DNA from: Dehalococcoidia bacterium
GTDB lineage: Bacteria > Chloroflexota > Dehalococcoidia > SZUA-161 > SpSt-899
Length of the DNA stretch: 64,000 nt
Assembly (NCBI GenBank): GCA_028711995.1
Contig: JAQTRE010000003.1
Location: 543-64,542, forward strand
Reading direction: 5' to 3'
Below are positions 7,214-37,383 of the stretch, piece by piece; within the stretch, counting starts at the first letter, position 1, and each line of letters opens with the position of its first letter. The notes under the pieces are model-generated. The model worked only from the letters and a program-made list of their open reading frames with translations, did not search any database and had not been told where the DNA came from. A program made the position numbers and the translations under genes.

Positions 7214-7253
7214 AGTACTGGCGCCCTCGTGGAGGCCGCCGCAAAATCCCTAT

Positions 7254-7345
7254 CAACCCCCTCAATCCCCCAACTCTTTGGGGGAGGAAAAGAAGATTTC
7301 GGGGACACCCCTAAAACCCCGGCAATGAAATATCTCTGCACTCTC
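7254..7345. repeat. Structured intergenic repeat, family 1 (copy A)
   Basis: aaccccctcaatcccccaactctttgggggaggaaaagaagatttcggggacacccctaaaaccccggcaatgaaatatctctgcactctc. Aligns over about 90 nt with 19596-19684; the 3' 49 nt are about 80% identical by hand count. Lies in the convergent RR/clpC 3' region. On the minus strand the hairpin ggggtgtcccc is followed by a T-rich tract, so it may act as the clpC terminator. Confidence 0.5.
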
Positions 7346-7361
7346 ATACCCAACTCTCGTT

Positions 7362-10363: not shown

Positions 10364-12634
10364 CTACAGGAAGAGCGGAGCGAGCACCAGCGTAACCGTC
10401 GAGAGAAGTTTGACCAGAACGTGCAATGACGGACCGGCCGTGTCTTTGAACGGATCACCCACGGTATCGCCCACAACTGCCGCGCCGTGCGTCGGGTTCT
10501 TCATCTTCTTGCCCGAAGCGTCGGTGAGGTACTTGCCGCCCAGAGCGCCGGTCTCGATGTATTTCTTCGAGTTGTCCCAGGCTCCACCCGCATTGTTGAG
10601 GAAGAGCGCGGTAATAATACCGACGATGGTTCCTACCATAATTAGAGCGCCCACAGCCTCAGCAGCGATCAACGGGTGAGCATCATCCACATATATCTGC
10701 TTGAAGATAACGCCCACACCAACCGGTACACAAACGGCGAGAAGCCCAGGAACGATCATCTTGCGCAGGGCCGCCTTGGTAACGATATCCACGCATGTGC
10801 CATAGTCGGGTTTGAAGTCTTTGGGGAACTGAATCATGTCGTTCACCCTGGGCAGCGTGGCATATTGCCGGCGCACTTCAGCAATGATAGCCTGTGCTGC
10901 CTGACCCACTGCTCGAATAGCAAAGGCAGAAAACAGGTAAACCAGCGCCGCGCCAACGAGCGCGCCGATGAATACCTGTGGCTTAGCCAGGTCAATTGGG
11001 AACGGGGAATCAATCGGTAGACCAGCATAATTCCTGACCTCATCCATGTATGCCTGGAAGAGCAGGAACGCCGCCAGACCGGCCGAGCCGATGGCGTATC
11101 CCTTGGTGAGCGCCTTGGTGGTGTTGCCCACCGCATCCAGCCTGTCGGTCTTCGCGCGAATCTCTTCAGGCTGCTGGGACATCTCTACAATGCCGCCTGC
11201 GTTATCGGTGATGGGCCCGAAGGTATCCATCGCCAGGATATAAGCCGCGGTAGAGAGCATGCCCATGGTGGCCACTGCCGTTCCGAACAGTCCGGCATGA
11301 GGAAGACCGCAGGTGTTTCCCAATTGATAGGATCCCAGCAGGGCTGCCGCCATGAAACAGACGGGTAAGGCCACGCACTCAAAACCCACCCCGATACCGG
11401 CGATGATATTGGTTGCCGGACCGGTGACTGAGGCCTCGGCTATGCTCTTGACAGGCCGATACTTGTATTCCGTGTAATACTGGGTAACGTACACAAAAGC
11501 CACCGAGGTAACTACGCCGATGACTCCGCAAAGGTAGAAATGCCACCAGGCATCAGTAGCCTGAGTCACCCCCGTAATAGGGTCAACAAACTTGGCATCC
11601 AGCAGCCAGTAGGAGGCCGCACCGAACCCCACCATCGCCAGCGCAACGGCGACGTAATATCCTCTGTTCAGGACTTGCATCGGATCCATCTTCTCTTCCT
11701 TATCCATATGGACATACATGATGCCGATGACGGAAGCGATGATTCCGAAGGCACGGGCAATCAGCGGGAACATCAGAACGCCGATGATCCCTTCGCGGAA
11801 CTCAAAACCCTGTTGAATCGCGATTTGAGCCAAGCTTGCAGCCAGGATCATGGCACCGATGTTTTCCGCGGCAGTCGATTCAAACAGGTCGGCGCCACGG
11901 CCAGCGCAGTCGCCCACGTTATCGCCCACCAGATCGGCGATAACCGCCGGATTCCTGGGGTCATCCTCCGGAATACCGGCTTCCACCTTGCCGACGAGGT
12001 CAGCGCCTACATCAGCGGCTTTGGTATAGATACCGCCGCCCAGCTGGGCAAACAAAGCCACGAACGACGCGCCAAAGCCGTAGCCAATGATCAGAAGCGG
12101 TATCTGAGTCTCCTTAACATCGGTCACCAGACTTACCAGTCCAAAAAGGCCGGCCACTCCCAAGAGGCTCATGCAGGTGACGAGCAACCCCGAAACCGCA
12201 CCACCTCGGAGGGCGACGCGAAGCGCATCATTGAGGCTGGTAAGGGCCGCATTGGCAGCCCGTATATTGCTTCGGATGGAAATCCACATCCCTACATAAC
12301 CCGCAATGACCGAGCAGATCGCGCCGAAAACAAACGACACGGTGATCCACATCGCCATTTCCCAGCCTTCATTAACAGGGTCAAAGTCCTTAGAACCACG
12401 CACAAATGCGTAATAGCAGAACAACAAAACCGCCAGCACAACCGCCATCATGGCAATTGTCTTGTTCTGGCGGCGGAGGAAGGCTTCCGCACCTTCCTTG
12501 ATGGCATTGGAGATTTTTAGCATCTCCTCGCTTCCGGTGTCGTGCTTGAGAACCCATTTTGCCAGGTACACGGCACACAACAGTCCGAAGACGCTGATGC
12601 CCAGAACCATGGCTATAAAATGTTCAGTCTCCAT
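10364..12634 (-). CDS. hppA: Membrane-bound proton/sodium-translocating pyrophosphatase (H+-PPase/V-PPase)
   Basis: About 750-aa polytopic membrane protein. Diagnostic motifs GGIYTKAADVGADLVGKVE and DLVGDNVGDCAGRGADLFES, and a C-terminal DNAGG-like region. Confidence 0.9.
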   Translation of the reverse strand: METEHFIAMVLGISVFGLLCAVYLAKWVLKHDTGSEEMLKISNAIKEGAEAFLRRQNKTIAMMAVVLAVLLFCYYAFVRGSKDFDPVNEGWEMAMWITVSFVFGAICSVIAGYVGMWISIRSNIRAANAALTSLNDALRVALRGGAVSGLLVTCMSLLGVAGLFGLVSLVTDVKETQIPLLIIGYGFGASFVALFAQLGGGIYTKAADVGADLVGKVEAGIPEDDPRNPAVIADLVGDNVGDCAGRGADLFESTAAENIGAMILAASLAQIAIQQGFEFREGIIGVLMFPLIARAFGIIASVIGIMYVHMDKEEKMDPMQVLNRGYYVAVALAMVGFGAASYWLLDAKFVDPITGVTQATDAWWHFYLCGVIGVVTSVAFVYVTQYYTEYKYRPVKSIAEASVTGPATNIIAGIGVGFECVALPVCFMAAALLGSYQLGNTCGLPHAGLFGTAVATMGMLSTAAYILAMDTFGPITDNAGGIVEMSQQPEEIRAKTDRLDAVGNTTKALTKGYAIGSAGLAAFLLFQAYMDEVRNYAGLPIDSPFPIDLAKPQVFIGALVGAALVYLFSAFAIRAVGQAAQAIIAEVRRQYATLPRVNDMIQFPKDFKPDYGTCVDIVTKAALRKMIVPGLLAVCVPVGVGVIFKQIYVDDAHPLIAAEAVGALIMVGTIVGIITALFLNNAGGAWDNSKKYIETGALGGKYLTDASGKKMKNPTHGAAVVGDTVGDPFKDTAGPSLHVLVKLLSTVTLVLAPLFL

Positions 12635-12791
12635 TTACACCTCCTCTTTTATTCGCGTCCGTGAGAATTGAACTGCCGTTTTTTCATCGGTGATGCTCTT
12701 CTTGCATTCTTGGATCCGGCACCTCCCTTTCTGCCAACTCATAGAGGCGGCTCGATCCCCCTTTTATCGACTAACTGTCCTTTTCATAAAA

Positions 12792-12819
12792 ATAGGGGCA
12801 ATGTTACCATTGCCCCTAT
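12792..12819. other. Perfect 12-bp-stem palindrome in the hppA upstream region
   Basis: ataggggcaatgttaccattgcccctat. On the minus strand it is followed by ttttatg, so it is terminator-like and would insulate the hppA promoter from transcription entering from the 12.8-14.2 kb gap. Confidence 0.35.
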
Positions 12820-13082
12820 CGGAAGTCGATGGAGGGACATACCAACTCCGTGTTCATTAGATTTGATCTGAAGACCTTACCGCCCTCTTGACGCATGACC
12901 GAACCAAGTATAGCGAAGATCATGATGTTCTGCAATAGGTTATGAAAACCCCTAATCAGTGGATTCAGATGGATTTCCCCCATCACAAACTGGGGAATTC
13001 TCCCAGCAAAGTTTATTGCCAGCCCGAAGCCTGACAGCTATTGTGGTTAATTACCTTCATCTATTAGGGCGCACAACTGTTA

Positions 13083-13335: not shown

Positions 13336-14284
13336 TGAAATCGATCTTCCGACAGGGGGTTGGAATACCTCTGTCGGAAGGCTTTATCCCCTGAATCCTC
13401 TTTTGAATCAAGCCTCCGATTGCAATATGTTCAAATATCCCCATGGGATGCACATGATGCAGCCATACTGAACAATTTCCCTATCGCAAACTGGGGGATA
13501 CCCTCAGTAAATTTTGTTGCTGGCCCTGTTTTAGAGGACTGCCCCGTCTGGTAAATTAGCTCAGAGGCGACTTTCGAGGACTGACTTAGGGAGTCCCTCC
13601 TTACAATTTCATAGAGAGCCTGGCCGTTATTCTGTTTCACTATTGAGCGGCTGGGAATATCCGAGAAAGGCAAATCAGGAGAAATCCTGAGACGCAAAGC
13701 CACGGGCCTGACGTCCAACCAGGACAAGGCAGCCGGGTTGCCGAAGATCCTCAATCGTGGTGGGGTTTGCACAACTTCTGTCAGGGTGCAAATTCGCACA
13801 GATGCGATCACTAGAGAATGCGCCGAGGCGGTGGGATGCAGGGAAAAGGCCGAAAGGAATTGGCGAAACGATGAGGACGGGACAACTTGGACTATCATAA
13901 GCAGGCATACGGATATCCTGGAAGCGTAAAACCCTCATATGAAAGGATTGGTTCGGATTGGCTTCTCCACCGCAACCGACCAGAGCCAACGAGCCAGAAG
14001 GGAAACAGGCCAATACCCTCAAGGCCTCTATCTGGACGGATACTGACGCCCGTTCGCAGCACAACCCGCAATTCACCTGCGCTGATGATAAACATCCCGG
14101 TCATACCTGAATTGACGGTTGTGAGACCTTGATTTTCCTCAAAGCTCGATCACTGTCTCTTCAAACACAAATTCAAAAAATAAAAAAGGGGGAGAGAAGG
14201 ATAAATCGAAAACTGAGAAGACAAAGCCAACAAATGAGTATTCCCCGGCAACAAAACTATCTTGTGTAAAGGAGGACAAACGGA

Positions 14285-16316
14285 AGTGAAAAAGTTAACA
14301 ACCATGCGAATGAGCATAAGGGCTAAACTCCTGGGCGGGTTCATGCTAGTGGTCATCCTATTGCTGGCCGTGTTCGGCATCGCCTATACCGGACTCAGCG
14401 ACATGGGAGATAAGAAAGACGAGGTCGTCAAGCAAAGCGAGATTGAAAGCCATCTGCAAAATATGGAGTACCACGCAGTTACGAGGTACTACATGGTCAA
14501 AGATTGGGTCGCTAGCATAGGCGGCCCCCAAGAAGAGACATATTTCCAGAAAGCGGAGGCAATCAAACAAAACTACTATACCGAAGCTGATACGTTACGA
14601 GGCTTATTGCCTGTCGATCAGGTTGCCGTGCTTGAAGATATCGTCAAATACGGCGAGGCGATCATCACCATTACGGGCAATACTGAGGGCCAAATGGACT
14701 TGGCTGCCATGATGGAAAGCAACAAAGCCTCCCAAGCTGCCAAGGCGGCCCTAAAAGGGAGTGCGACCGAGGCGATGCTGGCAGCCCAGAAGAGCGCCGA
14801 TGATGCCAAAACGTCGGCCATCATCATGACCTCGATCATGGCAGGCATCGCCGTAGCGCTGGCTCTTGTTATCGGATTTCTCATCTCGCGCTCCATCGCC
14901 AACAACACCAAGAAGGTGGTTCAGGCTGCCGACCAAATTGCCGATACCGACCTGGCAGCTCTGGCCAGCGCCACTGCGGCCATGTCAGAGGGTGACCTGA
15001 CCCGGTCGGTCGCCGTGCAAACCCAGCCCATAGCCGTAAAATCCAATGACGAACTGGGCGATCTGGCCAATTCCTTCAACCGAATGATCGCCCGTCTCCA
15101 TGAAACCGGCCAGTCCTTCTCCCTGATGACCACCAAGATGAGCGGCCTCATCGGCAAGGTGGCCGAAAACTCGGTGCAACTGAGCTCGGCCAGCGACCAA
15201 CTGGCTTCATCGGCTGAACAAGCTGGTTCCGCCACCCAGCAGGTGGCCAGCACTACCCAGCAGATGGCCAAGGGTGCGGGGGATCAGGCCGTCAGCACTC
15301 AGGAAACCGCCAAAGCCGTTGACCAGCTCACCGAAGTCATCTCACAAATCGCCAAGGGGGCTCAGGATCAGGCCAGCGGTGTCGAGAAAGCCACTTCCGC
15401 TATCGGTGAAGTCTCCACATCCGCTCAGCAAATGGCCAAGAACGCTCTCGGCGCCGCCGATAGCGCCAAGAAGGCCGCCCAGACCGCCAAGACCGGCACC
15501 GAGGTCACCAGGAAGACCGTCGAAGGCATCGAGCGCGTCAGGGATAGCTCACTGGCCGTCTTCCAGAAGATCTCCGAGATGAACAAGAACTCCGAGCAGA
15601 TCGGCAGAATCGTGGCGGTGATTGACGACATCGCCGCCCAGACCAACCTCCTGGCTCTCAATGCCGCCATCGAGGCGGCCCGGGCAGGCGAACACGGCAG
15701 AGGATTTGCGGTAGTTGCCGACGAGGTCAGAAAGCTTGCCGAGCGTTCCTCCACTGCCACCAAGGAGATCGCCGCTCTCATCACCGGCATCCAGAGCAAC
15801 ATCGGAGAGTCCGCCAAAGCCATGGAACAGGGGCAGCATGAAGTAGACGAAGGATGCAAGCTCGCTACCCAGTCCGGCAAGGCCCTGGAAGAGATCCTCA
15901 GAGAGGCCACCGAAGCCGCCAATCAGATCGAGCAGATATCCAGAGGAGCTCAGCAAGTGAGCAACTCCACCAATGATCTGGTCAGTATCATCGATAGCGT
16001 CGGGGCAGTGACGGAACAGAGCATGGCCGCCACCGAACAGATGACCGCTAACGCTCAACAAGTGGCCAATGCCATCGAGAACGTCGCTGGTATCGCCGAA
16101 GAGAACAGCGCGGCCACCCAGGAGACATCGGCTTCCGCCGAAGAGATGAGTTCCCAGGTCGAGGAGATCGTCGCCGCCTCCCTTTCTCTCAAGCAAATGG
16201 CCGAGGAACTTCAGACCACCGTATCCGTGTTCAAGACCAATGGCCACGGCGCTCACAAAGATTTGGCCGGAAGCGAGACGCTGTCGGTTAACGAGAAGGT
16301 GTTAGTCCGAAATTAA
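14285..16316 (+). CDS. Methyl-accepting chemotaxis protein (2 TM helices, periplasmic sensor domain, HAMP, MCP signalling domain)
   Basis: TM1 [20 protein letters not shown], periplasmic region of about 150 aa, TM2 [26 protein letters not shown] (..[18 protein letters not shown]). Highly conserved MCP hairpin ..[42 protein letters not shown]. Perfect AAGGAGG RBS 10 nt before GTG 14285. Alternative starts are ATG 14262 or ATG 14304. Confidence 0.85.
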
Positions 16317-26918: not shown

Positions 26919-29900
26919 ATGTTCACTCATCTTCACACTCACACCGAATACAGCCTGCTCGACGGTATGGGCCGCATCCCTCAGCTTATCGAGAGAACCA
27001 AAGAGTTGGGGATGGATAGCCTGGCCATCACCGACCACGGCGCGCTTTATGGCATCATTCAATTCTATTCCCAGGCCAAGAAAGCCGGGATAAAGCCGAT
27101 ACTGGGCTGCGAACTCTATGTAGCTCCCGGAGAGCGCACCTCCAAAACCTCATCCGACAAAAGCCCTTACCATCTCGTCGTCCTGGCCAAAAATATCACC
27201 GGCTATCACAACCTGCTGCATCTCAGCAGCAAGGCTTTTCTGGAAGGATTCTACTACAAACCGCGGGTTGACCGGGAACTCCTGGCCCAATACCATGAAG
27301 GGCTGATCGCTTCTTCGGCCTGCATTCAGGGGGAGGTTCCCAGGCTGATTCTGGAAGGACGGCACAAAGATGCCGAGAAAGCCGCCCGATGGTATAAAGA
27401 GGTCTTTGGCGATTTCTATCTGGAGCTTCAGGATCACGGCATACCGGAACAGGCGCAAGCCAACAAAGCGCTCATCGCCATGGGGAAAAAGCTGAATCTG
27501 CCCCTCGTGGCCACCAATGATATCCATTACACCAATAAAAACGACGCCCCTATTCATGAGATTCTGCTGTGCATTCAAACCGGCGCTACCATTCACGATG
27601 AAAAGCGCATGAAGATGTCCTCCGATGCCTTCTATCTCAAAAGTCCTCAGGAGATGGCCAGTCTGTTCGCCGAATGCCCGGAGGCCATTGCCAATACCGG
27701 ACACATTGCCGAGATGTGCGAACTCAATCTGGAGTTCGGCCGGCTCCACCAGCCGCAGATTGATATACCGCCGGGCAAGACTCCTCAGGAGTATCTCTCG
27801 GATCTGTGCTGGAAAGGGCTGGCTCTCCGTTATGCCGACGCTTCCGAAGAAGTGAGAGAGCGCCTGACCTACGAGCTCGATGTCATCCGGAAGACCGAGT
27901 TTGCCAACTACTTTCTCGTGGTTTGGGAACTCGTCTCATTTGTCCGGAAAGAGAAAATCCTCTTTGGCGTCCGGGGAAGCGCCGCTGCCAGTCTGGTTCT
28001 CTTCTGTCTGGGCATCACCGATATCGATCCGCTGGCTCACAAACTGGTGTTCGAGCGGTTCCTTAACGTGGAACGCAAGGAGATGCCGGATATCGACCTC
28101 GATTTTCAGGATGACCGCCGCGAGGAAGTGATCCGTTACGTATCCCAGCGTTATGGCGCAGACCATGTGGCTCAGATCATCACTTTTGGAACCCTCGGCG
28201 CCAGAGCGGCGCTCAGGGATGTGGGCAGGGCGCTGGGAATGTCCTATGGGCAGGTGGACAACGTGGTTCGGCTGGTACCTACAGCCGGAAGCACGCTCAC
28301 CGAAGCAATCGAGCAGAACCCTGATCTTGCCGGCATCTATAAAAGTGATAAGGAAATCGGGAAGCTGGTTGATACCGCCATCCGGCTTGAAGGAGTGGCT
28401 CGCCATGCATCCACTCATGCTGCCGGAGTTGTCATCTCCAGTGAGCCCTTGAGTAATCATGTGGCCCTGCAACGCCCCACCGGGAGCAACGAGGGAGGTA
28501 TCGCTACCACTCAACTGGCGATGGAAGAGGTGGCCAAGGTCGGGCTCCTCAAGATGGACTTCCTGGGACTGGCCAACCTGACCACCCTGGGCAAGGCCAA
28601 AGACATTATCGCCAGGACTCGCGGCATCGAGATCGATCTGCAGCATATTCCTCTTGATGATGCCAAGGCCTTTGCGCTCCTTTCCGCCGGAGAGACCACG
28701 GGTGTTTTCCAGCTCGAAGGCGCCGGGATGCGGCGCTATATCAAAGAGCTTAAGCCGAGCACCTTCAGCGATATCGCTTCCATGGTGGCCCTTTATCGTC
28801 CGGGACCCAAACAGCACATTCCCACCTTCATTAAGTCCAAGCACAAGGAGATACCGATCAAGTTCCCCCATCCGGCGCTGGAGAAGATACTGGAGGAAAC
28901 CTACGGCGTCATTGTCTACCAGGATCAGGTGCTTCGAATTACCCAGGCGTTTGCCGGATATACCCTCGGGGAAGCCGATATTGTGCGCAAGGCGATGGGG
29001 AAGAAGATTCCCGAAATCATGCAGAAAGAGCGGGACAAATTCATCGCCGGGGCTATCGAAAAGAAGGGGTTTTCCCGGGAGATTGCCGAGCAGGTATTCA
29101 ACCTCATCGAACCGTTTGCCGGTTATGCCTTCAACAAAGCCCATGCCACCAGCTATGCCATGATTGCCTATCAGACCGCTTATCTGAAGGCCATCTATCC
29201 GGCAGAATTCATGACCGCCCTTTTCATTACCAATATGGGCAATCAAGAAAAAATCTCCACTGCGGTGGCGGAGTGCCGACGCCTGGGAATATCGGTCCAG
29301 GCGCCGGACGTAAATCGAAGCGAAAAGTCCTTCACCATTGAGAACGCGGACGACGGGTCGCAGGCGATTCGCTTTGGATTGGCGGCCATCAAGAACGTCG
29401 GGGAGGGCGCTATCGAGCCCATTATCGTTGCCCGGGAGAAGGGAGGACCTTTTAAATCAGTTGAAGACCTTGCCCGCCGCTGCGATCTTCGGGGGCTCAA
29501 CAAACGCGCCCTGGAGAGCCTCATCAAAGTAGGCGCCCTGGATTCGTTGGGTCAGCGAGGGGCGCTGCTGACAGGGATGGATCGAATCTTGCGCCTTTCG
29601 CAGCAGGAACAGCAGCTCAAGGAGAGCGGACAGGCGACGATGTTCGATCTCTGGGGCGAAAGCGCCGCGACCCCGTTGCCCGAACTCGAATTGAAGAATC
29701 TCGCCATACCGGAGAGCGAAACATTGAACTGGGAGAAAGAACTGCTCGGTGTCTATCTTTCCGCTCACCCCCTCGTATCGGCAGCAAAAGATTTGGGGGA
29801 TCGTTTAACCGCATTCTGCGGACAGATCGATGAGGAAATGGCCGGCCAGGAAGTCACGCTGGTTGGAATGGTCAACTCGGCGCGCAAGGGGGTGACCCGG

Positions 29901-30380
29901 AATGGCAAACCGTTCGTCAGCGCCGTGCTGGAAGATATCGGCGGCGAGATTGAAGTCACTGCATGGTCGGAGGTGTATAGTCGGACAGCGGAACTCTGGG
30001 AGGAGGGCAAAACCCTATTGCTGTTCGGGAAAGTCGACTTGCGGGGAGACCGGGTACAGCTAACCTGCAAAGATGTTATTGCTTACCAGACCGGCATGGA
30101 AATTCCCTGGGCTGCGGCTCAGCGTCCGCCTTCAAAACGCGTTTACCAGCTTATCATCAGCCTCCATCAAACCGGCGATGAAGCGGCCGATGTCTCGCGT
30201 CTCAACCGGGTTTTCGCTATACTTGAGGGATTTCCCGGTGAAGATAAGACATATCTGAAGGTCGCCAATGGGATGGGAATGGTCAAGATGGAGCTTCCCA
30301 ATTGCCCGGTGACTTACTGTGAGGAGCTGCATCGGCAGCTTGCTGAGGTGGTGGGGGAAGATGGGTTAGCCCTTGCATAG
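26919..30380 (+). CDS. dnaE: DNA polymerase III alpha subunit (PHP + polymerase core + OB fold)
   Basis: MFTHLHTHTEYSLLDG (PHP domain), ..GVRGSAAASLV.., catalytic FDIDLDF-like region, 1153 aa. Confidence 0.95.
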   Translation: MFTHLHTHTEYSLLDGMGRIPQLIERTKELGMDSLAITDHGALYGIIQFYSQAKKAGIKPILGCELYVAPGERTSKTSSDKSPYHLVVLAKNITGYHNLLHLSSKAFLEGFYYKPRVDRELLAQYHEGLIASSACIQGEVPRLILEGRHKDAEKAARWYKEVFGDFYLELQDHGIPEQAQANKALIAMGKKLNLPLVATNDIHYTNKNDAPIHEILLCIQTGATIHDEKRMKMSSDAFYLKSPQEMASLFAECPEAIANTGHIAEMCELNLEFGRLHQPQIDIPPGKTPQEYLSDLCWKGLALRYADASEEVRERLTYELDVIRKTEFANYFLVVWELVSFVRKEKILFGVRGSAAASLVLFCLGITDIDPLAHKLVFERFLNVERKEMPDIDLDFQDDRREEVIRYVSQRYGADHVAQIITFGTLGARAALRDVGRALGMSYGQVDNVVRLVPTAGSTLTEAIEQNPDLAGIYKSDKEIGKLVDTAIRLEGVARHASTHAAGVVISSEPLSNHVALQRPTGSNEGGIATTQLAMEEVAKVGLLKMDFLGLANLTTLGKAKDIIARTRGIEIDLQHIPLDDAKAFALLSAGETTGVFQLEGAGMRRYIKELKPSTFSDIASMVALYRPGPKQHIPTFIKSKHKEIPIKFPHPALEKILEETYGVIVYQDQVLRITQAFAGYTLGEADIVRKAMGKKIPEIMQKERDKFIAGAIEKKGFSREIAEQVFNLIEPFAGYAFNKAHATSYAMIAYQTAYLKAIYPAEFMTALFITNMGNQEKISTAVAECRRLGISVQAPDVNRSEKSFTIENADDGSQAIRFGLAAIKNVGEGAIEPIIVAREKGGPFKSVEDLARRCDLRGLNKRALESLIKVGALDSLGQRGALLTGMDRILRLSQQEQQLKESGQATMFDLWGESAATPLPELELKNLAIPESETLNWEKELLGVYLSAHPLVSAAKDLGDRLTAFCGQIDEEMAGQEVTLVGMVNSARKGVTRNGKPFVSAVLEDIGGEIEVTAWSEVYSRTAELWEEGKTLLLFGKVDLRGDRVQLTCKDVIAYQTGMEIPWAAAQRPPSKRVYQLIISLHQTGDEAADVSRLNRVFAILEGFPGEDKTYLKVANGMGMVKMELPNCPVTYCEELHRQLAEVVGEDGLALA

Positions 30381-30472
30381 GCCAAGCAAGTATTGTATCC
30401 TATGCCAAAATGTGTTAATATGCTGTTCGCATCGGCTAGATCAAGCGACAGAGGGGGTGATGGCTCCAATTT

Positions 30473-30661
30473 ATGGATCCCGATTTATTATCAACGGAAG
30501 ATGTGGGTGGCATTCTGAAAGTTAGCAAGATAACGGTGCAGAGATGGTGCCATGAGGGGGAAGTCCCTGCGGCAAAAATTGGCAAATCGTATCGCATCAA
30601 GAAAGCTGATCTGGACAGGTGGTACGAAGGTAAATTCCTGAAAGAAAACGTATTCCAGTAA
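30473..30661 (+). CDS. Small helix-turn-helix DNA-binding protein (excisionase/MerR-like HTH_17)
   Basis: LLSTEDVGGILKVSKITVQRWCHEGEVPAAKIGKSYRIKKADLDRWYEG, 62 aa. Sits immediately upstream of the speH-decarboxylase-kamA cluster and is a possible local regulator. Confidence 0.55.
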   Translation: MDPDLLSTEDVGGILKVSKITVQRWCHEGEVPAAKIGKSYRIKKADLDRWYEGKFLKENVFQ

Positions 30662-30686
30662 TAAACTGAAAAAGGGGGTGGGTCTA

Positions 30687-31043
30687 ATGCATCTGATAAT
30701 TGATGGATATGCAAGAGATCGCGGCAAGATAATGGATAAGGAGTTCATTCGTGAGTTCCTTGATACCTACCCCCAACAAATACAGATGACCAAGGTTTCC
30801 ACGCCAAAAGTATCTCAATATCAGGATAGCGAGCATCAGGAGCAGGGAATATCCGGATTTGTCCTCCTTGCCGAGAGTCATATCAGCATTCATGTTTTCC
30901 CTGAAAGTTCTTATATCAACATCGATGTCTTTTCCTGTAAGGATTTTGATCCTGAACAGGTGGTAAGAGGGCTGGAACAACAATTCGGCCTGGCTGACGT
31001 AAAAAGTTATATTCTCAACCGGCCGCATTCAATCACAGAATAG
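30687..31043 (+). CDS. speH: S-adenosylmethionine decarboxylase proenzyme, small SpeH class (pyruvoyl enzyme)
   Basis: GFVLLAESHISIHVFPESSYINIDVFSC matches the SpeH self-cleavage/active-site motif (ES/H, serine to pyruvoyl). About 118 aa. AGGGGG RBS 8 nt before ATG 30687; the track's GTG 30678 is a less likely start. Confidence 0.75.
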   Translation: MHLIIDGYARDRGKIMDKEFIREFLDTYPQQIQMTKVSTPKVSQYQDSEHQEQGISGFVLLAESHISIHVFPESSYINIDVFSCKDFDPEQVVRGLEQQFGLADVKSYILNRPHSITE

Positions 31044-31191
31044 GTGGGATTCATACTACGTCCGATAAATGGCAGGAGCGACAACAGACCGGCGAAGGGA
31101 GAATGGCGGAGATCAAGGCCACGGATAGATAGAAGATGCCGGGTTCATGCCGTGGGTCATAGAAGTCTAAATCCTGAGAGGTTTCGCAGAA

Positions 31192-32313
31192 TTGTCCACT
31201 AATCTCCCAACAGCAGCGGTCCCTGAGAGCGTATTACGTCTGGCGCAGAATCGAAAAACACCCTTTCTTGCTATCGATGAGAAATCGATCCGGGATAAAT
31301 TCCAGCAATTCCGGGAGGCATTGCCCGCCTGCAGAATATTCTATGCGGTCAAGGCCAACTCCCACAAGCGCATCGTGAAGACGATGCACGCCATGGGAAG
31401 TGATTTTGAGATTGCCTCAGAGGAAGAGCTGAATTTACTACTCGACTGTGGGATAGCTCCTCAGAAGATCATCACCAGTAATCCGGTAAAGAGCGTGCCT
31501 TTTATCCAGGCTTGCCATCAAGCTGGAGTGATGGATTTCGCCTTTGACTCCCTGGATGAAATCGAAAAGCTCTCGAGATATGCCCCCGGGAGCAGGGTCT
31601 ATGTACGGCTTACCGTATCAAACGAGGGAAGCCAGTGGCCGCTGAGCCGGAAATTCGGCGTGGAAATCGATGAGGCCGCCGAACTCCTTATAACTGCTGC
31701 CAAGAGATCTCTCGTGCCGTATGGCTTAACTTTCCATGTTGGTTCGCAATGCACCAATGAGATCGCATGGGTGAATGCGATCTCGAAAAGCAAGCGAGTT
31801 TGGGACATGACGGCAGCAAAAGGCGTAAAACTGCGTATGCTCAACATCGGCGGTGGCTTTCCTATCCACTATACGGATGCTATCCCTCCCCTCAGCCGAA
31901 TCTCTAGGGCGATAGAAAAAACGGTAGGCCGTGACTTTCTTGAAAGCACAGAGGTCTTCGTGGAGCCCGGAAGGGTTTTCGTCGGCGAAGCCGGCATTCT
32001 GGTGACCACCGTTATTGGCAAGGCAAGGCGCGGTGAGCAGAATTGGCTCTATCTGGATGTTGGGGTTTTTAACGGACTGATGGAGAGCGTGGGTGGGTTT
32101 CGATATTCAATGGTTACCCATCGGGAAGGACCAACGCGCAAGTGGGTGGTGGCAGGGCCTTCTTGCGATAGCATGGATGTTATTTCCAATGATAAAGACC
32201 TGCCGGAGTTAGAAATAGGCGACAAGGTGTATATCCTTTCGGCAGGCGCCTATACCACAGTTTATGCCTCTCGATTCAATGGCTTTCCCATCCCAAAGAC
32301 GTACTTCCTTTAG
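31192..32313 (+). CDS. PLP-dependent fold-III (alanine-racemase-like) decarboxylase of the Orn/Lys/DAP decarboxylase family
   Basis: FLAIDEKSIRDKFQQFREALPACRIFYAVKANSHKRIVKTM (PLP-lysine motif YAVKAN), GS-rich loop, C-terminal beta-domain. 373 aa, shorter than LysA and similar to bacterial ODC/LDC or carboxy(nor)spermidine decarboxylase. Only a TTG start is available at the 5' end. Confidence 0.75.
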   Translation: MSTNLPTAAVPESVLRLAQNRKTPFLAIDEKSIRDKFQQFREALPACRIFYAVKANSHKRIVKTMHAMGSDFEIASEEELNLLLDCGIAPQKIITSNPVKSVPFIQACHQAGVMDFAFDSLDEIEKLSRYAPGSRVYVRLTVSNEGSQWPLSRKFGVEIDEAAELLITAAKRSLVPYGLTFHVGSQCTNEIAWVNAISKSKRVWDMTAAKGVKLRMLNIGGGFPIHYTDAIPPLSRISRAIEKTVGRDFLESTEVFVEPGRVFVGEAGILVTTVIGKARRGEQNWLYLDVGVFNGLMESVGGFRYSMVTHREGPTRKWVVAGPSCDSMDVISNDKDLPELEIGDKVYILSAGAYTTVYASRFNGFPIPKTYFL

Positions 32314-32318
32314 CGGGC

Positions 32319-32350
32319 TGCTGAAAAAGTTTGACTTAACCCCCTAGCCC
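32319..32350. repeat. Family-1 repeat 5' module (copy D)
   Basis: gctgaaaaagtttgacttaaccccctagccc is near-identical to 2976-3007. Located between the decarboxylase and kamA. Confidence 0.45.
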
Positions 32351-32502
32351 TAAAACAGGCATTTTTGCCTCTACCTTGAGATCTTCCGGGAATTGGTGGT
32401 TTAGACCAATATGCAACACTTGACAAATGTGATATAATTCAGCGCGAATAAAGATACAGGCGAATTCAAAAAATTCCACAATTTAAGGAGGTGTAGCCGA
32501 AA

Positions 32503-33861
32503 GTGATAAAAACATCGACAATTCTGCAGCAGCAAGAAACAGTAGCCCGGGCCGAAGAGGAGCCTCCGGGTTGTAGTGCCGTATTCAATGAGGCCGAAGA
32601 GGAGCCTCCGGGTATTTCGGCCCTGACATTTAGAAACAGGTTCTTCAGCCATGTTCCAGCTGAAAGTTGGGACGACTGGAAATGGCATTTCCGAAACCGA
32701 ATCACATCGGTTGAAGAGTTGGCACGATACATTCCCCTATCAGCCAGAGAGCTGTCCCGGCTCAAACTGGTAACGGCCAAGTATCCCCTAGCGATAACCC
32801 CTTACTATCTCTCGCTCATCGATCCTTGCGATCCTGATGACCCCATTCGAAAACAGGCAGTGCCTTGTTTTGATGAGGTGGCGCTGGCCGGCATGGGGGT
32901 TGAGGATCCTCTGGAAGAGAAGCGTCATTCTGTAGTTCCGGGGCTGGTTCACCGTTATCCAGACCGGGTATTGATGGTGTTAACCGACATCTGCCCGATG
33001 CTGTGCCGTCACTGTACCCGAAAGAGAGAATGGCGCAATGGCGAATGGGTGCGTACGCCGGCCGAGGTTGAGGCAATGCTGGACTATATCCGCAAGCACA
33101 GGGAAGTCCGCGATGTCATCATCTCCGGTGGTGACTGTCTGACTCTTACTACGCATCGTCTGGAAACCGTCATTGCCGCAATTCGGCGTATAGGGCATGT
33201 GGAGATCATCCGCATTGGCACCAGGTTCCCGGTGGTATTGCCGCAGCGTATCGATGACGAGTTGTGCGCCATGCTCTCCAAGTATGGGCCGATATGGCTC
33301 AATACGCACTTCAACCACCCGCGAGAGATAACACCGGAGGCAGCGCGGGCTGTTGATCGGCTTTTGAGGGCCGGGGTACCAGTGAACAATCAGTCGGTGC
33401 TTCTTCGCGGAGTGAACGATACCGTCAAAACACAGTTGAAGCTGTCTCACGGATTGCTCAGGATAAAGGTAAGACCTTATTACCTTTTCCAGACGGATGA
33501 GGTGCAAGGAACGGAACACTTGCGCACATCGGTGGAAACGGGGATTGCGATAATTGAGGGTATGCGGGGCCACACTTCAGGCTTGGCTATTCCTCACTAC
33601 GTGATCGATCTCCCTCACGGGGGAGGGAAGGTGCCCGTCCAGCCAAACTATGTGGTGGCGCAAACTGAAGATGGAATGATACTGAGAAACTATCAAGGCA
33701 ATCTCTTCCAGTATCGAAATCCCATGAGCCAGAGCCGGAACAAAAATATCCGCCGCAATGGCAAGCGGGTGGGCGAGCCGGTACAAACGATATTGCCCCT
33801 ACCCAGCTCGCCTTTGGCAGCCGAACAACCCCAACCTCAGCTTGTCGGGGTTAAACGATAG
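32503..33861 (+). CDS. kamA: Lysine 2,3-aminomutase (radical SAM, KamA/AblA family)
   Basis: CPMLCRHCTRKREW (KamA-type CxxxCxxC radical-SAM cluster), ITPYYLSLIDP, SWDDWKWHFRNRIT, PLP-binding region. AAGGAGG RBS 10 nt before GTG 32503. The N-terminal 30 aa include a translated tandem repeat. Confidence 0.85.
   Translation: MIKTSTILQQQETVARAEEEPPGCSAVFNEAEEEPPGISALTFRNRFFSHVPAESWDDWKWHFRNRITSVEELARYIPLSARELSRLKLVTAKYPLAITPYYLSLIDPCDPDDPIRKQAVPCFDEVALAGMGVEDPLEEKRHSVVPGLVHRYPDRVLMVLTDICPMLCRHCTRKREWRNGEWVRTPAEVEAMLDYIRKHREVRDVIISGGDCLTLTTHRLETVIAAIRRIGHVEIIRIGTRFPVVLPQRIDDELCAMLSKYGPIWLNTHFNHPREITPEAARAVDRLLRAGVPVNNQSVLLRGVNDTVKTQLKLSHGLLRIKVRPYYLFQTDEVQGTEHLRTSVETGIAIIEGMRGHTSGLAIPHYVIDLPHGGGKVPVQPNYVVAQTEDGMILRNYQGNLFQYRNPMSQSRNKNIRRNGKRVGEPVQTILPLPSSPLAAEQPQPQLVGVKR
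32551..32613 (+). repeat. 21-nt direct repeat x2 with 42-nt period, in frame within the kamA 5' end (encodes AEEEPPG twice)
   Basis: gccgaagaggagcctccgggt at 32551-32571 and again at 32593-32613. Confidence 0.6.
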
Positions 33862-33863
33862 CG

Positions 33864-34871
33864 ATGAAGATCGGGCTCTCGTACGATCTCAAAGAAGCCG
33901 TGACCGTGGGGTCGGCCCAGACAGATGATGCCCTCGAGGAATACGATTCTCCGGCAACGGTGGCGGCAATTGAGATGGCCATAGAGAGCCAGGGACATTC
34001 GGTGATCAGGCTGGGTGGGGGAAGAGATTTCCTCACCCAGATACTGCAACAGAAGGTTGATTTCGTCTTCAACATTTCCGAGGGACGTGGAAACTACAGG
34101 AGCCGAGAATCTCAAGTGCCCTGTATCCTCGAGATGCTAGATATCCCCTATACAGGCTCTGACCCGCAGAGTCTGGCGGTTTGTCTGGATAAACCTTTGA
34201 CCAAGCAATTGGTGGCAGCGGCAGGCATCTGTGTTCCGAAGGGATTGGTGATCACCGATTCTCGTCAATTGAAGGAGATCGACTGGGCTCAATTCCCTCT
34301 GCCTGCCATTGTCAAGCCAGCCTATGACGGGTCCAGCAAAGGCATTCGCTTCAATTCGAGAGTTGAGGATGGCGGCCAAGCCGCTTCTGTCATCGCTAGT
34401 CTCTTGGAGCAGTACCGCCAACCAATCCTGGCGGAGGAATTCATCGACGGGGATGAAGTCACGGTAGGGATAACAGGCAATTCCCCCCCCAAAGTTCTTG
34501 GTGTGATGCGCATTCTCCCCAAGAAAAAGGGGGCATATTTTGTTTATTCCCTGGAAGTGAAGCGGGATTGGGAACAGCTGGTGGAATATGAATGCCCCGC
34601 TCAGCTTGGGGATGACGTTCTGGAGAAGATCAATTTTTCCAGCCTGAGGACGTTTGAGCTTTTGGGGTGCCGGGACTTCGCCAGAATCGATTTCAGGATT
34701 AGTCGCGAAGGGATACCGTATTTCTTGGAGATCAATCCGCTAGCCGGACTGAATCCTTATAGCAGCGACCTGCCCATTATGGTTGGCAAGCTGGGGATTG
34801 GCTACCAGGCCCTAATCTCTGGCATACTTGTCGCCGCTCTGTTAAGGTATCCACAGTGCGAAGTAAGATAG
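33864..34871 (+). CDS. ATP-grasp ligase, D-alanine--D-alanine-ligase-like (Ddl family, unknown substrates)
   Basis: Ddl-like architecture: N-terminal pre-ATP-grasp (MKIGLSYDLKEA..EEYDSPATVAAIEMAIESQGHSV), central and C-terminal ATP-grasp with E..E..N catalytic residues (FLEINPLAGL). 3-nt gap after kamA. Confidence 0.7.
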   Translation: MKIGLSYDLKEAVTVGSAQTDDALEEYDSPATVAAIEMAIESQGHSVIRLGGGRDFLTQILQQKVDFVFNISEGRGNYRSRESQVPCILEMLDIPYTGSDPQSLAVCLDKPLTKQLVAAAGICVPKGLVITDSRQLKEIDWAQFPLPAIVKPAYDGSSKGIRFNSRVEDGGQAASVIASLLEQYRQPILAEEFIDGDEVTVGITGNSPPKVLGVMRILPKKKGAYFVYSLEVKRDWEQLVEYECPAQLGDDVLEKINFSSLRTFELLGCRDFARIDFRISREGIPYFLEINPLAGLNPYSSDLPIMVGKLGIGYQALISGILVAALLRYPQCEVR

Positions 34872-35851
34872 CCATTGTCTACAACGACCCCATCCCTGAT
34901 CGCTACACCCAGTTTGGCGAGGCCGATGCTGTCTCCGACGTTCTGGAAGAGGTAGAGACGGTCAATGATGCCCTGAAAGAATTGGGTTACGACGTCATCA
35001 ATGTGCCCCTGGTTCCGCCTTTGGATGAAGTAAGGGAAACCATACGGAATCTGGACGTAGATATCTTCTTCAATCTGTTTGAGGGCTTTGCCGGTCAGCC
35101 GGATACTGAACCCATCATCGCCGGCATGCTGGCACTTTCAGGAAAGCCATTCACTGGTTCCACCTCGCCCACATTGTTTTTGGCCTTGGACAAGGTTAAG
35201 TCCAAGGAATTTTTGATCGGTTCCGGTGTGCCCACTCCCAGATATCACGTATTGCGTCCGGAAACAATGGGTCGGTTTGATTTAGATTTCCCAGTAATTG
35301 TCAAGCCGCCAGCCGAAGATGCCAGCCACGGCATCACTGTCGATAGCGTAGTCAATGATTCCGCTGCCTTGGCGCGGCAAGTACAAAAGGTGTGCCTCAA
35401 CTATGGCGGGTCGGCTCTTGTGGAAGAGTTCATTGACGGCCGGGAATTCAATTCCACCGTCATGGGTAACCAGGACATTCACATCCTGTCAATTTCAGAA
35501 ATAGTCTATACCTTGCCACCCGAACTGCCCCGCCTGGTTACTTTTGGCGCCAAGTGGTTGCCCGGGGATATCTATTTTGAGAACACCGACCCGGTGTGTC
35601 CCGCGGAGATCGATACGGAACTGTGGGATCAGGTTGCTGAAACCTCGCTTTCAGCCTATCGACTGATGGGTTGCCGGGGATATGCCAGAATTGACATGCG
35701 ACTGGATGCCGAGGGAAGGGCAAAAGTGCTGGAGGTGAACCCCAATCCGGCCATAGCCCCTCGCTCTGGTGCTGCGCTTCAGGCTCGATCCGCCGGAATG
35801 ACCTACGCTCAATTCATCAAAAGGATCGTATCACTGGCACTTGAAAGGTAG
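34856..35851 (+). CDS. ATP-grasp ligase, Ddl-like, paralog 2
   Basis: MRSKIAIVYNDP...AVSDVLEEVETVNDALKELGYDV, ..VLEVNPNPAIAP. Overlaps the previous gene by 16 nt. Confidence 0.7.
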   Translation: MRSKIAIVYNDPIPDRYTQFGEADAVSDVLEEVETVNDALKELGYDVINVPLVPPLDEVRETIRNLDVDIFFNLFEGFAGQPDTEPIIAGMLALSGKPFTGSTSPTLFLALDKVKSKEFLIGSGVPTPRYHVLRPETMGRFDLDFPVIVKPPAEDASHGITVDSVVNDSAALARQVQKVCLNYGGSALVEEFIDGREFNSTVMGNQDIHILSISEIVYTLPPELPRLVTFGAKWLPGDIYFENTDPVCPAEIDTELWDQVAETSLSAYRLMGCRGYARIDMRLDAEGRAKVLEVNPNPAIAPRSGAALQARSAGMTYAQFIKRIVSLALER

Positions 35852-35856
35852 GAAGT

Positions 35857-36333
35857 ATGAAACCCAATATCAGGCCTATGACTTCTGGCGACAAGACGGT
35901 TATCATGCAGATTCTCAGGAATACTCCTGAATTTATGGCAGAAGAGGTAGTTGTGGCAGAAGAGGTGATGGATAGCTATTTGCGCGATCCTTCCGGCCCT
36001 GATTACAAAATACTGGTGGCCGAGGTTGATTCCTCTGTTGCAGGCTATATCTGTTACGGACCTACACCCCTAACCAAAGGGACATGGGACATGTACTGGG
36101 CAGCAGTTGATCCCACCAAACAAGGGAAAGGTATCGGAAGCGCGCTTTGGGCAGCTGCCGAGAAAAATATGAGAGAAGCCAATGGAAGGCTCTCTCTGAT
36201 TGAGACATCCGGAAAACCAAGCTATGCCAAGACCTTACGTTTTCATCAGAAGCAAGGCTACCATGAGGTCAGCCGAGTTCCTGATTTTTATGATGTCGGT
36301 GACGACCGGTTGATTCTGCGCAAGCTTTTGTGA
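35857..36333 (+). CDS. GNAT-family N-acetyltransferase
   Basis: 158 aa. Acetyl-CoA-binding motif A region ..VDPTKQGKGIGSALWAAAEKNMRE.. (Q/RxxGxG/A). 5-nt gap after the second ATP-grasp gene. Confidence 0.7.
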   Translation: MKPNIRPMTSGDKTVIMQILRNTPEFMAEEVVVAEEVMDSYLRDPSGPDYKILVAEVDSSVAGYICYGPTPLTKGTWDMYWAAVDPTKQGKGIGSALWAAAEKNMREANGRLSLIETSGKPSYAKTLRFHQKQGYHEVSRVPDFYDVGDDRLILRKLL

Positions 36334-36403
36334 TAGGCAGTCAGCAGCGCGAGAAGTGATGCCCATACCTGCTCACTGCAACTTTCTGTGAAAGGAGGGC
36401 CCT

Positions 36404-37330
36404 GTGAGACCGATCAGCAAAATCGCTCCCGGATGGTGGGACTATACCACGCTGGATCACAAGATTCTGGATCAGGCTGCCCGGCTTACGGCGGAAGACC
36501 TCTTGGGTCTGAGCCGAAAAGGCTTCTCTATCAAATTCTACGATACCCTCGAGGACTTCTTCCTCGCCCAAGCAATGGAGTATATCACCGCATGGAAACA
36601 GGCCTCGGCGGATAAACCGGCCGGTATTTGTGGCCCTATTGGCCCATCGGAACAACTTCCGCTGGTTGCCCGGCTGGTCAACGAGCTTGAGATTAACCTC
36701 GATCATTGCCATTTTTGGGGCATGGACGAGTGGGTTTCCGATGGAAAGGAGCTGGAGTTCGATCACCCCCTCAGCCTTGCGGGGGCTGACATGCGCCTGT
36801 GTTTCAATCGCATCCGCGAAGACCTGCGCATGCCTTCAAAGAACATCCATTTCCCCAAGGTGGACACCAGGGATTACATCGAGAGTTGGGACAAGGCTCA
36901 CTGCGTGATCATGCAAGGCGGGCAGGGAGAGGTCAAGCACTGGGCTTTCAATGACCCGCCCAGGCGAGAAGGGAAATATGGAGATGCCCCACCTTCTCCA
37001 AAGGAATTCCGCAAGCTGACCACTCGCCTAGTTGACCTTCATCCCTTGAGCCTGATCCAGAACGCCCGAACCTCTGGAGGAGGCATGATTCATAACATAC
37101 CCACCCAGGCGCTTACTGTCGGTCCGGTGGAAACGTGGAAGGCAGACAAAGTGTCTATCTGGCACCCGGGGGATGATGACAATCCCTTTGGGATACGGCT
37201 GACCACGTTTATGATCTCAAAGAAGATCACCGACGCCGCTGTGCCGATGTCACTGCTGGCCGATCACCCAAATCTACAGTTTAACTTCTACCGTGGCGGG
37301 ATCAGTACCTGCGAGATGCTGATGCAGTGA
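36404..37330 (+). CDS. Glucosamine-6-phosphate deaminase/isomerase-like protein (NagB/6-phosphogluconolactonase superfamily), N-terminally extended
   Basis: ..[11 protein letters not shown].., [17 protein letters not shown] resemble the NagB motifs (MDEY.., AFNEP). 308 aa. AAAGGAGGG RBS before GTG 36404. Confidence 0.6.
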
Positions 37331-37353: not shown

Positions 37354-37383
37354 AAAAAGGCTCCCCTCTTGGGGAGCCTTTTT
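37354..37383. terminator. Bidirectional rho-independent terminator (nagB-like on plus, rpsI on minus)
   Basis: aaaaaggctcccctcttggggagccttttt: stem ggctcccc/ggggagcc, A-tract 5' and T-tract 3'. Confidence 0.65.

Follow-up and report, generated by a model that had tools for sequence, protein, structure and literature searches.

A widespread KamA, ATP-grasp and GNAT gene cassette of Dehalococcoidia that may direct synthesis of an N-acetylated beta-lysine peptide

We examined a 64,000-nucleotide (nt) stretch of DNA, referred to here as the window, from a Dehalococcoidia metagenome-assembled genome (MAG), and found that four consecutive genes at 32503-36333, encoding a KamA-type aminomutase, two paralogous ATP-grasp ligases (AG1 and AG2) and a GNAT acetyltransferase, form a real, conserved, operon-like unit of the kind expected of a self-contained metabolic module. 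We favor, at a little better than even confidence, a model in which this four-gene operon makes an N-acetylated di- or tri-(pseudo)peptide containing beta-lysine. The classes of chemistry in this model rest on established family mechanisms, and we infer the substrates, the order of the steps, the product and its physiological role. A preliminary description of the same DNA had grouped eight genes around KamA into a single biosynthetic island for a beta-lysine-derived molecule; its core idea was right, and its boundaries, as well as the part it gave to two decarboxylases, a NagB-like enzyme and a helix-turn-helix (HTH) protein, were wrong. All eight open reading frames (ORFs) are present on the plus strand where they had been placed, flanked by dnaE (26919-30380) on one side and by a convergent ribosomal-protein/rpoA block on the other, and the family calls of seven of them were supported by Pfam and NCBIfam. 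The features of the region are as follows.

30473-30661, plus strand: HTH_17/excisionase-type HTH protein (Pfam/NCBIfam)
30678-31043, plus strand: SpeH, AdoMet_dc domain (Pfam; NCBIfam equivalog cut-off passed)
31192-32313, plus strand: fold-III pyridoxal-phosphate (PLP) decarboxylase, Orn_Arg_deC_N domain (Pfam; under every NCBIfam equivalog cut-off)
32430-32438, plus strand: promoter-like extended -10 element, TGaTATAAT (consensus match only)
32485-32493, plus strand: strong ribosome-binding site (RBS), AAGGAGGTG, ahead of the KamA GTG start (consensus match only)
32503-33861, plus strand: KamA, 452 aa, Radical_SAM and LAM_C domains, first gene of the cassette (Pfam)
32554-32571 and 32596-32613, plus strand: two E-E-E-P-P-G copies in the N-terminal extension of KamA (motif scan)
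33864-34871, plus strand: AG1 (ATP-grasp ligase 1), 335 aa, MDD5092977.1, Dala_Dala_lig_C domain (Pfam)
34856-35851, plus strand: AG2 (ATP-grasp ligase 2), 331 aa, Dala_Dala_lig_C domain (Pfam)
35857-36333, plus strand: GNAT, 158 aa, MDD5092979.1, Acetyltransf_1 domain, last gene of the cassette (Pfam)
36404-37330, plus strand: P8, NagB-fold protein, 308 aa (AlphaFold model and Foldseek)
37354-37383, bidirectional: rho-independent terminator between the convergent P8 and rpsI genes (folding)

The AG1 protein of the window is 100% identical to NCBI MDD5092977.1, and an AG1 alignment was used to scan GTDB genomes (one per species), which returned at least 590 confirmed relatives. The loci of the best 80 of these, with 8-kb flanks, were compared by tblastn with all eight window proteins; four metagenome contigs were added, and the checks of flanking genes covered 86 cassette loci over 8-10 kb. 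The order KamA-AG1-AG2-GNAT on a single strand was found in nearly all of the 80 genome loci long enough to show it, and on all four metagenome contigs. KamA adjoined AG1 in 65-75 genome loci and GNAT directly followed AG2 in 66-71, with junctions that overlapped or were shorter than 30 nt in 94-97% of the genomes; the 16-nt overlap between AG1 and AG2 seen in the window recurred in 46 of 69. The coupling of KamA to two paralogous genes related to D-Ala-D-Ala ligase (Ddl) and to a GNAT gene, as first proposed from the window, is thus a conserved unit. Its carriers are mostly Dehalococcoidia, among them a Dehalogenimonas genome (L065), and within this class AG1 is 57-73% and KamA about 70% identical. 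Cassettes with AG1 proteins of 41-53% identity were also found in Gemmataceae and other Planctomycetota, Acidobacteria, SAR202, Thermodesulfobacteriota, delta-proteobacteria and Ca. Ozemobacter. The genes at times stand in another order, or a PAS kinase and a sigma-54 activator interrupt the block. This spread across phyla is as expected of a self-contained metabolic module, and even in the closest relative (71% AG1 identity) the flanking genes differ from those of the window.

The copy in the window is intact, in that columns conserved in at least 95% of the sequences are violated only by KamA P212C, AG1 E155D and AG2 D299A; decay of this copy was ruled out, there being one such deviation in each of the three proteins. 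Two variants of the locus were also recorded. In delta-proteobacterial loci (L074:7983-15076, also L076) AG1 lies apart from KamA-AG2 across an insert of three co-directional genes, for a PAS histidine kinase, a response regulator that is sigma-54-dependent and a single-domain response regulator, an arrangement that implies signal-controlled expression. The cultured myxobacterium Citreicoccus inhibens M34 (L080) has two tandem AG1-like genes at 6966-9002 with no KamA within 8 kb, and a Peptidase_S58 gene (DmpA/beta-aminopeptidase family) lies nearby at 11470-12858.

The spacing of the genes in the window agrees only in part with the picture first given, in which short or overlapping junctions ran through all eight genes. 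Such junctions were confirmed between KamA and AG1 (a gap of 2 nt, given earlier as 3), AG1 and AG2 (the overlap) and AG2 and GNAT (5 nt), and 16 nt separate HTH from SpeH, but the gaps between SpeH and the decarboxylase (148 nt), the decarboxylase and KamA (189 nt) and GNAT and P8 (70 nt) do not fit it. The 189-nt gap houses both the candidate -10 element and the AAGGAGGTG RBS, and a scan of 30300-32700 found no Rfam riboswitch or other RNA leader ahead of KamA. The terminator reported downstream of P8 was borne out by folding: a perfect 13-bp stem between A5 and U5 has a free energy of -27.9 kcal/mol (z = -4.1), and none of 200 shuffled sequences was equally stable. Likewise, no obvious terminator interrupts the eight genes, since terminator-like matches within them numbered 6 against 8.3 expected from shuffled sequence and were therefore not enriched.

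The neighborhood comparison upheld KamA-AG1-AG2-GNAT, but the genes for the HTH protein, SpeH, the PLP decarboxylase and the NagB-like protein were not found beside the cassette elsewhere. Neither SpeH, nor the decarboxylase, nor the NagB-like protein had a counterpart in the flanks of the 86 loci, and the only HTH matches there were to the HTH_17 domains that six loci have in response-regulator genes downstream. The proposal that all eight genes form one island, in which the decarboxylases and the NagB-like enzyme tailor a beta-lysine polyamine or aminosugar under control of the HTH protein, is on this evidence highly improbable. The eight genes are co-directional with no convincing terminator before 37354, transcription may read through the 70-nt gap from GNAT into P8, and in one locus (L001) genes for AdoMet_dc and BpsA_C proteins lie about 3 kb away from the cassette; against this, none of the four extra genes lies near the cassette in the 86 other loci, the upstream trio is conserved by itself, P8 is found in a sugar context elsewhere, and promoter-like and RBS elements precede KamA. 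Co-directionality of the eight genes alone is not beyond chance, and only the four-gene core and, separately, the three-gene trio are non-random by conservation. The polyamine genes of L001 are unrelated to the trio of the window, and a link between polyamine genes and the cassette was dropped because this is the only one of 86 loci with any such genes nearby. The region is therefore best described as three juxtaposed, independently inherited units: a polyamine trio, the four-gene cassette and P8.

The trio (30473-32313) recurs in three Chloroflexota contigs that lack the KamA cassette (L089, L090 and L091), its orthologues being 35-70% identical and its decarboxylase short (~373 aa). SpeH passed the NCBIfam equivalog for S-adenosylmethionine decarboxylase (TIGR03330; 78.7 bits, cut-off 75.65), and in L090 the trio is directly followed by a spermidine synthase gene, although no such gene was found in the window. 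The trio is a polyamine module that includes the HTH gene and is not part of the cassette. P8 had no Pfam or NCBIfam match and no PDB sequence match, even at E <= 1. Its AlphaFold model (predicted local distance difference test score, pLDDT, 80.6) matched glucosamine-6-phosphate deaminases in Foldseek (E 9e-15, TM 0.65-0.76, ~19% identity), so that the term NagB-like, used for it from the start, holds at the level of the fold. P8 is, by this model, a divergent NagB-superfamily protein encoded by a separate gene, beside the cassette in none of the other 86 loci. Its homologues, 72-87% identical, occur in Chloroflexi, Pirellulales (Planctomycetes), Anaerolineales and Omnitrophica, and in an Anaerolineae relative (L088:6001-6927) the gene stands between those for a GFO_IDH_MocA oxidoreductase and a PIG-L deacetylase; the family is probably one of aminosugar enzymes that has no Pfam or NCBIfam model. 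With SpeH, the decarboxylase, the HTH gene and P8 absent near other cassettes, two ideas in the preliminary description lose their basis, namely a decarboxylated, polyamine-like or aminosugar-linked product and the HTH protein as regulator of the beta-lysine pathway, the latter being conserved with the polyamine genes instead.

The first enzyme of the cassette aligned with the lysine 2,3-aminomutase (LAM) of C. subterminale (PDB 2A5H) over 370 residues (E 6e-132). In this alignment KamA keeps the lysine-binding residues Asp293 and Asp330 as well as the PLP lysine Lys337, and its CxxxCxxC motif (C164, C168, C171) is invariant across the cassette orthologues. Asp293 and Asp330 ligand the epsilon-ammonium group of lysine and are replaced in glutamate 2,3-aminomutases. 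The best NCBIfam model for KamA was the AblA equivalog TIGR03820, whose cut-off of 525.4 bits it did not reach (471.4 bits); because it also fell under the cut-offs for glutamate and arginine 2,3-aminomutases and for EpmB (TIGR03821; 243.6 bits, cut-off 369.3), cassette KamA forms a clade of its own. Its substrate would be L-lysine, judging by the lysine-binding residues it has kept. A glutamate or arginine 2,3-aminomutase identity was ruled out by the presence of both aspartates that contact the lysine epsilon-amine, all three equivalog cut-offs being missed nonetheless.

Cassette KamA proteins also begin with ~45-55 extra residues, an N-terminal extension that 2A5H lacks, the alignment to it starting at query residue 44. 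In Dehalococcoidia this extension has one or, usually, two copies of E-E-E-P-P-G/S amid variable sequence. The motif is kept in 57 of 75 cassette KamA orthologues; as the pattern E[ED]EPP[GS] it was matched by 46 KamA ORFs and by none of the ~2,300 remaining ORFs of the loci, and in the six frames of the whole window it is found only at 32554 and 32596 (KamA residues ~18-37). The core chemistry does not depend on it, since intact cassettes lack it in delta-proteobacteria, in Ca. Ozemobacter and at two Planctomycetota loci (L078 and L079). It resembles a short linear motif of the docking or acceptor kind and may serve the ATP-grasp enzymes.

AG1 and AG2 are paralogues with 29% identity. Ddl/Van models made up all of the best 25 of 43 NCBIfam matches of AG1 and the best 25 of 40 of AG2, and the solved structures nearest to AG1 are Ddl and VanA. 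Neither protein reached the cut-off of the best Ddl model, NF002378 (AG1 170.5 and AG2 152.5 bits, cut-off 243), and both were still further under the cut-offs of the remaining Ddl/Van models. The ligand pocket was compared by aligning 83 AG1 and 77 AG2 sequences to E. coli DdlB, in which D-Ala is bound by the E15-S150-Y216 triad, H63 and S281/L282. Residues K97, K144, E180, E187, K215, R255, D257, E270 and N272 of DdlB are invariant or nearly so in both families; with all ATP, Mg and catalytic residues kept, both enzymes are probably active and would be expected to use the acyl-phosphate route of Ddl. AG1 retains DdlB E15 and S150 and has the changes H63E, Y216R and L282D, while AG2 has E15A, S150A/G, H63E, Y216W and L282G; these replacements are family-specific and conserved across the sequences aligned. 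The D-Ala pocket has thus been rebuilt, so that AG1 and AG2 are, as far as the alignment can tell, not bona fide cell-wall Ddl. At the position of DdlB G276, 75 of the 77 AG2 family members have Asp and the AG2 of the window has Ala (residue 299, window 35750-35752); this site is in the oxyanion region, and the change may be genuine or an error in the MAG consensus. The AlphaFold model of AG1 was moderate (pLDDT 69.7) and added nothing past a Ddl-like assignment.

The GNAT protein does not group with AblB, the acetyltransferase of the N-epsilon-acetyl-beta-lysine pathway, as no AblB-family NCBIfam model matched it at E <= 0.01 and its best NCBIfam match was RimI, at 34 bits against a cut-off of 86. 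A clear orthologue was found in PDB entry 2R7H (E 5e-32 over residues 11-155), and the cassette GNAT thereby already has a solved structure. That entry bears the title 'putative D-alanine N-acetyltransferase of GNAT family', a name that appears to derive from annotation context. We take the source organism of 2R7H to be Desulfovibrio alaskensis G20. A transposon-library paper on D. alaskensis G20 contains no mention of these genes.

These properties bear on another account of the locus, in which KamA and GNAT make only N-epsilon-acetyl-beta-lysine and the ATP-grasp genes are ordinary or spare cell-wall Ddl that happen to lie between them. Ddl is the closest characterized family, many AG1 orthologues are annotated in public records as 'D-alanine--D-alanine ligase', and the title of 2R7H is in keeping with such names. 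However, both ligases score under every NCBIfam Ddl cut-off, Tyr216, His63 and Leu282 are replaced family-wide in both, together with Glu15 and Ser150 in AG2, the ligases are strictly co-inherited with KamA in overlapping reading frames, and the GNAT is unlike AblB. The flanks of the cassette contain no mur or fts genes, apart from one MurB-like ORF in L072. We consider this account very unlikely. Conversely, with ligases that by their sequences are not Ddl, a GNAT that is not AblB-like and a conserved unit, the product is very probably more elaborate than N-epsilon-acetyl-beta-lysine, as had been suggested at the outset.

In the model we favor, KamA would convert L-lysine to beta-lysine by radical S-adenosylmethionine/PLP chemistry. 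AG1 and AG2 would contribute one amide bond apiece, made with ATP by way of an acyl-phosphate. The invariant Glu that both ligases have at DdlB position 63, and the Asp of AG1 at position 282, would partly acidify the pocket in a way that suits a cationic beta-lysine moiety. In AG1, Glu15 and Ser150 would provide a site that holds the free amino group of the acyl donor; the loss of both in AG2 suggests a donor that is N-blocked or already ligated. GNAT would then acetylate a remaining free amine, giving a small N-acetylated di- or tri-(pseudo)peptide that contains beta-lysine and probably serves as a cytoplasmic stress or compatible solute, transportable and deacetylatable.

The genes that recur around the cassette were identified by clustering ~2,360 flank ORFs from 82 loci and scanning the recurrent clusters against Pfam and NCBIfam. 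The only near-universal clusters were the four cassette genes, with no fifth. The following neighbors recurred in part of the loci.

Divergent from the cassette, 24 loci: winged-HTH/MarR-like regulator
Directly after GNAT, 15 loci: GNAT-like plus histone-deacetylase (HDAC)/acetylpolyamine-amidohydrolase-type protein
Directly after GNAT, 15 loci: NAAT (MarC) family transporter
Upstream of the cassette, 10 loci, and downstream in L087: major facilitator superfamily (MFS) transporter

These neighbors fit a small, acetylated, amino-acid-like molecule that is transported across the membrane and can be deacetylated, and the GNAT/HDAC neighborhood suggests a cycle of acetylation and deacetylation acting on the product. 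The protein of the second row, as in L050:5633-7375 and 14 other loci, is ~580 aa long, with a weak GNAT-like N-terminal domain fused to the HDAC/acetylpolyamine-amidohydrolase domain. In L077:1662-3731 the N-terminal half of the cassette GNAT is fused in frame to an HDAC-type protein, which may be an assembly artefact. The flanks in other phyla showed nothing consistent. No conserved precursor peptide or small ORF (18-95 aa) was found in the 800 nt upstream of the cassette or the 700 nt downstream of it, the search returning only alternative frames of neighboring genes, and flank clustering yielded no efp or LysRS-like gene among the conserved neighbors.

The deacetylase and transporter genes, which adjoin the cassette in 10-15 loci each, could also belong to a pathway for a bioactive, antibiotic-like beta-lysine peptide in the manner of negamycin or streptothricin, with GNAT for self-protection and the deacetylase and transporter for activation and export. 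GNATs that confer streptothricin resistance acetylate the beta-lysine amine. The nearest published precedent that we found for the cassette lies here as well, in that the negamycin cluster is described as encoding beta-lysine formation and, in clusters of this type, such genes are co-located with ATP-grasp genes for amide-bond formation (bioRxiv 10.1101/2025.05.27.656397). The negamycin-type clusters, however, are actinomycete secondary-metabolite clusters with genes for hydroxylation, N-methylation and N-N-bond formation, none of which the cassette has. In addition, the cassette of the window sits within a core housekeeping region (dnaE, ribosomal proteins, rpoA), and its occurrence in at least 590 species-level genomes at 57-73% identity is unlike the patchy distribution and fast evolution of antibiotic clusters. 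An antibiotic-like product is accordingly improbable.

A third group of explanations keeps the ligases active on beta-lysine and changes the acceptor. AG1 and AG2 might polymerize beta-lysine, with or without a partner, into an oligo- or polyamide of the poly-beta-lysine or cyanophycin kind that is capped by GNAT and serves as storage or envelope material, a reading favored by the presence of two ligases beside a single dedicated precursor-supplying enzyme. ATP-grasp polymerases do exist (cyanophycin synthetase, RimK), and the tandem AG1-like pair of L080 lies near a Peptidase_S58 gene. Polymerization nonetheless seems quite unlikely here: Pfam detected no primer-binding or Mur-ligase-like domain such as that of CphA, matches to cyanophycin synthase were marginal (E about 7e-4), and deacetylase and amino-acid transporter neighbors fit a monomeric solute better. 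Alternatively, the ligases might act on a protein or peptide, for instance by adding beta-lysine to the Glu side chains of the EEEPPG repeats of KamA, with an outcome resembling a LysW-like carrier or a TTLL/RimK-like modification, or on another protein, which would parallel the beta-lysylation of elongation factor P (EF-P). The duplicated acidic motif, which is cassette-specific and found only in KamA, speaks for such a target, as do the ATP-grasp enzymes RimK, LysX and TTLL, which modify Glu-rich tails or carrier proteins, and the microviridin layout, which likewise has two ATP-grasps and a GNAT; a housekeeping role would agree with the high degree of sequence conservation. On the other side, AG1 and AG2 belong to the Ddl clade, whose known members ligate small molecules, and RimK and LysX-type matches of the AG1 profile were marginal. 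The motif is missing from the intact cassettes named above, no precursor ORF, efp or other conserved neighbor emerged from the flanks, and KamA is far under the EpmB cut-off. We regard a protein or peptide target as unlikely.

Among known systems, the cassette would amount to an extended version of the AblA/AblB pathway. It resembles AblA/AblB in having a full-length, LAM_C-containing lysine aminomutase with the lysine-binding residues as its first gene, a GNAT as its last gene and small-solute transporters nearby, and differs in that KamA is under the AblA cut-off, the 158-aa GNAT is not of the AblB family, two ligases stand between them in nearly all loci and KamA has the EEEPPG extension. 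With Ddl and VanA the ligases share the fold, the closest sequence family and the ATP, Mg and catalytic residues, but not the pocket (H63E, Y216R/W and L282D/G, with E15A and S150A in AG2) or the genetic context, which is KamA/GNAT rather than mur/fts. N-acetylglutaminylglutamine amide (NAGGN), a dipeptide osmolyte, is made by Ngg, a bifunctional GNAT and ATP-grasp enzyme, together with AsnO. The cassette is comparable in that a GNAT and ATP-grasp enzymes would build an N-acetylated peptide solute without a ribosome or a non-ribosomal peptide synthetase; unlike the NAGGN pathway, it has no asparagine-synthetase-type amidotransferase and no GNAT/ATP-grasp fusion, its beta-lysine would come from a dedicated aminomutase, and no Ngg-type NCBIfam model was among the matches listed for its GNAT. 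In pyrrolysine synthesis, the radical lysine mutase PylB forms a diamino acid and the Ddl-related ligase PylC joins it to an amine. PylB is not of the KamA family, however, the cassette has two ligases and a GNAT and lacks a PylD-like dehydrogenase, and the AG1 profile matched no PylC structure in the PDB at E <= 0.01. It likewise differs from graspetide/microviridin clusters, a class of peptides that are made on ribosomes and modified after translation, in having no conserved precursor-peptide ORF nearby, and from EpmA/EpmB in that KamA has LAM_C and scores under the TIGR03821 cut-off and that no LysRS-like gene is a conserved neighbor. The cassette thus fails membership of the AblA/AblB, NAGGN, Pyl, Ddl, EpmAB and graspetide systems, and the openly searchable full-text literature contained no description of it, in agreement with the earlier statement, made for the larger gene set, that no described pathway was known to combine these enzyme classes.

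The core is a widespread, tightly conserved and misannotated gene cluster. Its annotation as 'D-Ala-D-Ala ligase' and 'lysine 2,3-aminomutase' invites wrong conclusions about peptidoglycan in Dehalococcoidia, which abound in sediments, the subsurface and dechlorinating sites and are mostly uncultured; we know of no work on their small-molecule physiology. That the operon is kept intact by at least 590 species-level genomes implies that its metabolite or modification really matters. Once the product is identified, beta-amino-acid and compatible-solute biochemistry would gain a new branch, the Ddl family two new substrate specificities and the orphan structure 2R7H a function. We would go as far as to suggest, at not quite an even chance, that the cassette defines a new class of metabolite, a beta-lysine-based, ATP-grasp-assembled N-acetylated peptide, widespread among Dehalococcoidia and perhaps the main organic solute of these bacteria; in a more radical form of this suggestion, synthesis would be templated on the EEEPPG tail of KamA as a built-in carrier.

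Several points weigh against an N-acetylated beta-lysine peptide solute. The AG1 model is only moderate, so that the pocket arguments rest on the sequence alignment to E. coli DdlB alone. A simple soluble pathway leaves the EEEPPG repeats of KamA unexplained. According to the titles of their records, MAGs with the cassette were recovered from lakes, groundwater, peat and fens and also from marine sites, and these mixed habitats give no pointer to salt adaptation specifically. The high conservation within Dehalococcoidia would also fit a housekeeping role such as the modification of a macromolecule.

The remainder of the window has a core housekeeping character. On the side of dnaE (1-26700) lie purF, purM, genes for a hybrid-cluster/carbon monoxide dehydrogenase-family protein, a two-component system, a Clp ATPase and an H+-pyrophosphatase, thiamine genes, and those for RNase HII, proB/proA, RNase III and ftsY. 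On the other side (37388-60730) are rpsI, rplM, truA, rplQ, rpoA and rpsD, with dnaJ at a greater distance. The ORFs scanned included no mobile-element genes. An aptamer of the cyclic di-GMP-I-GGC riboswitch (Rfam RF03167; 71.7 bits, E 5e-15) was detected at 13660-13746 on the plus strand, where it overlaps a minus-strand ORF without family assignment (13431-13898) and lies ~500 nt upstream of a gene for a methyl-accepting chemotaxis protein (14262-16316).

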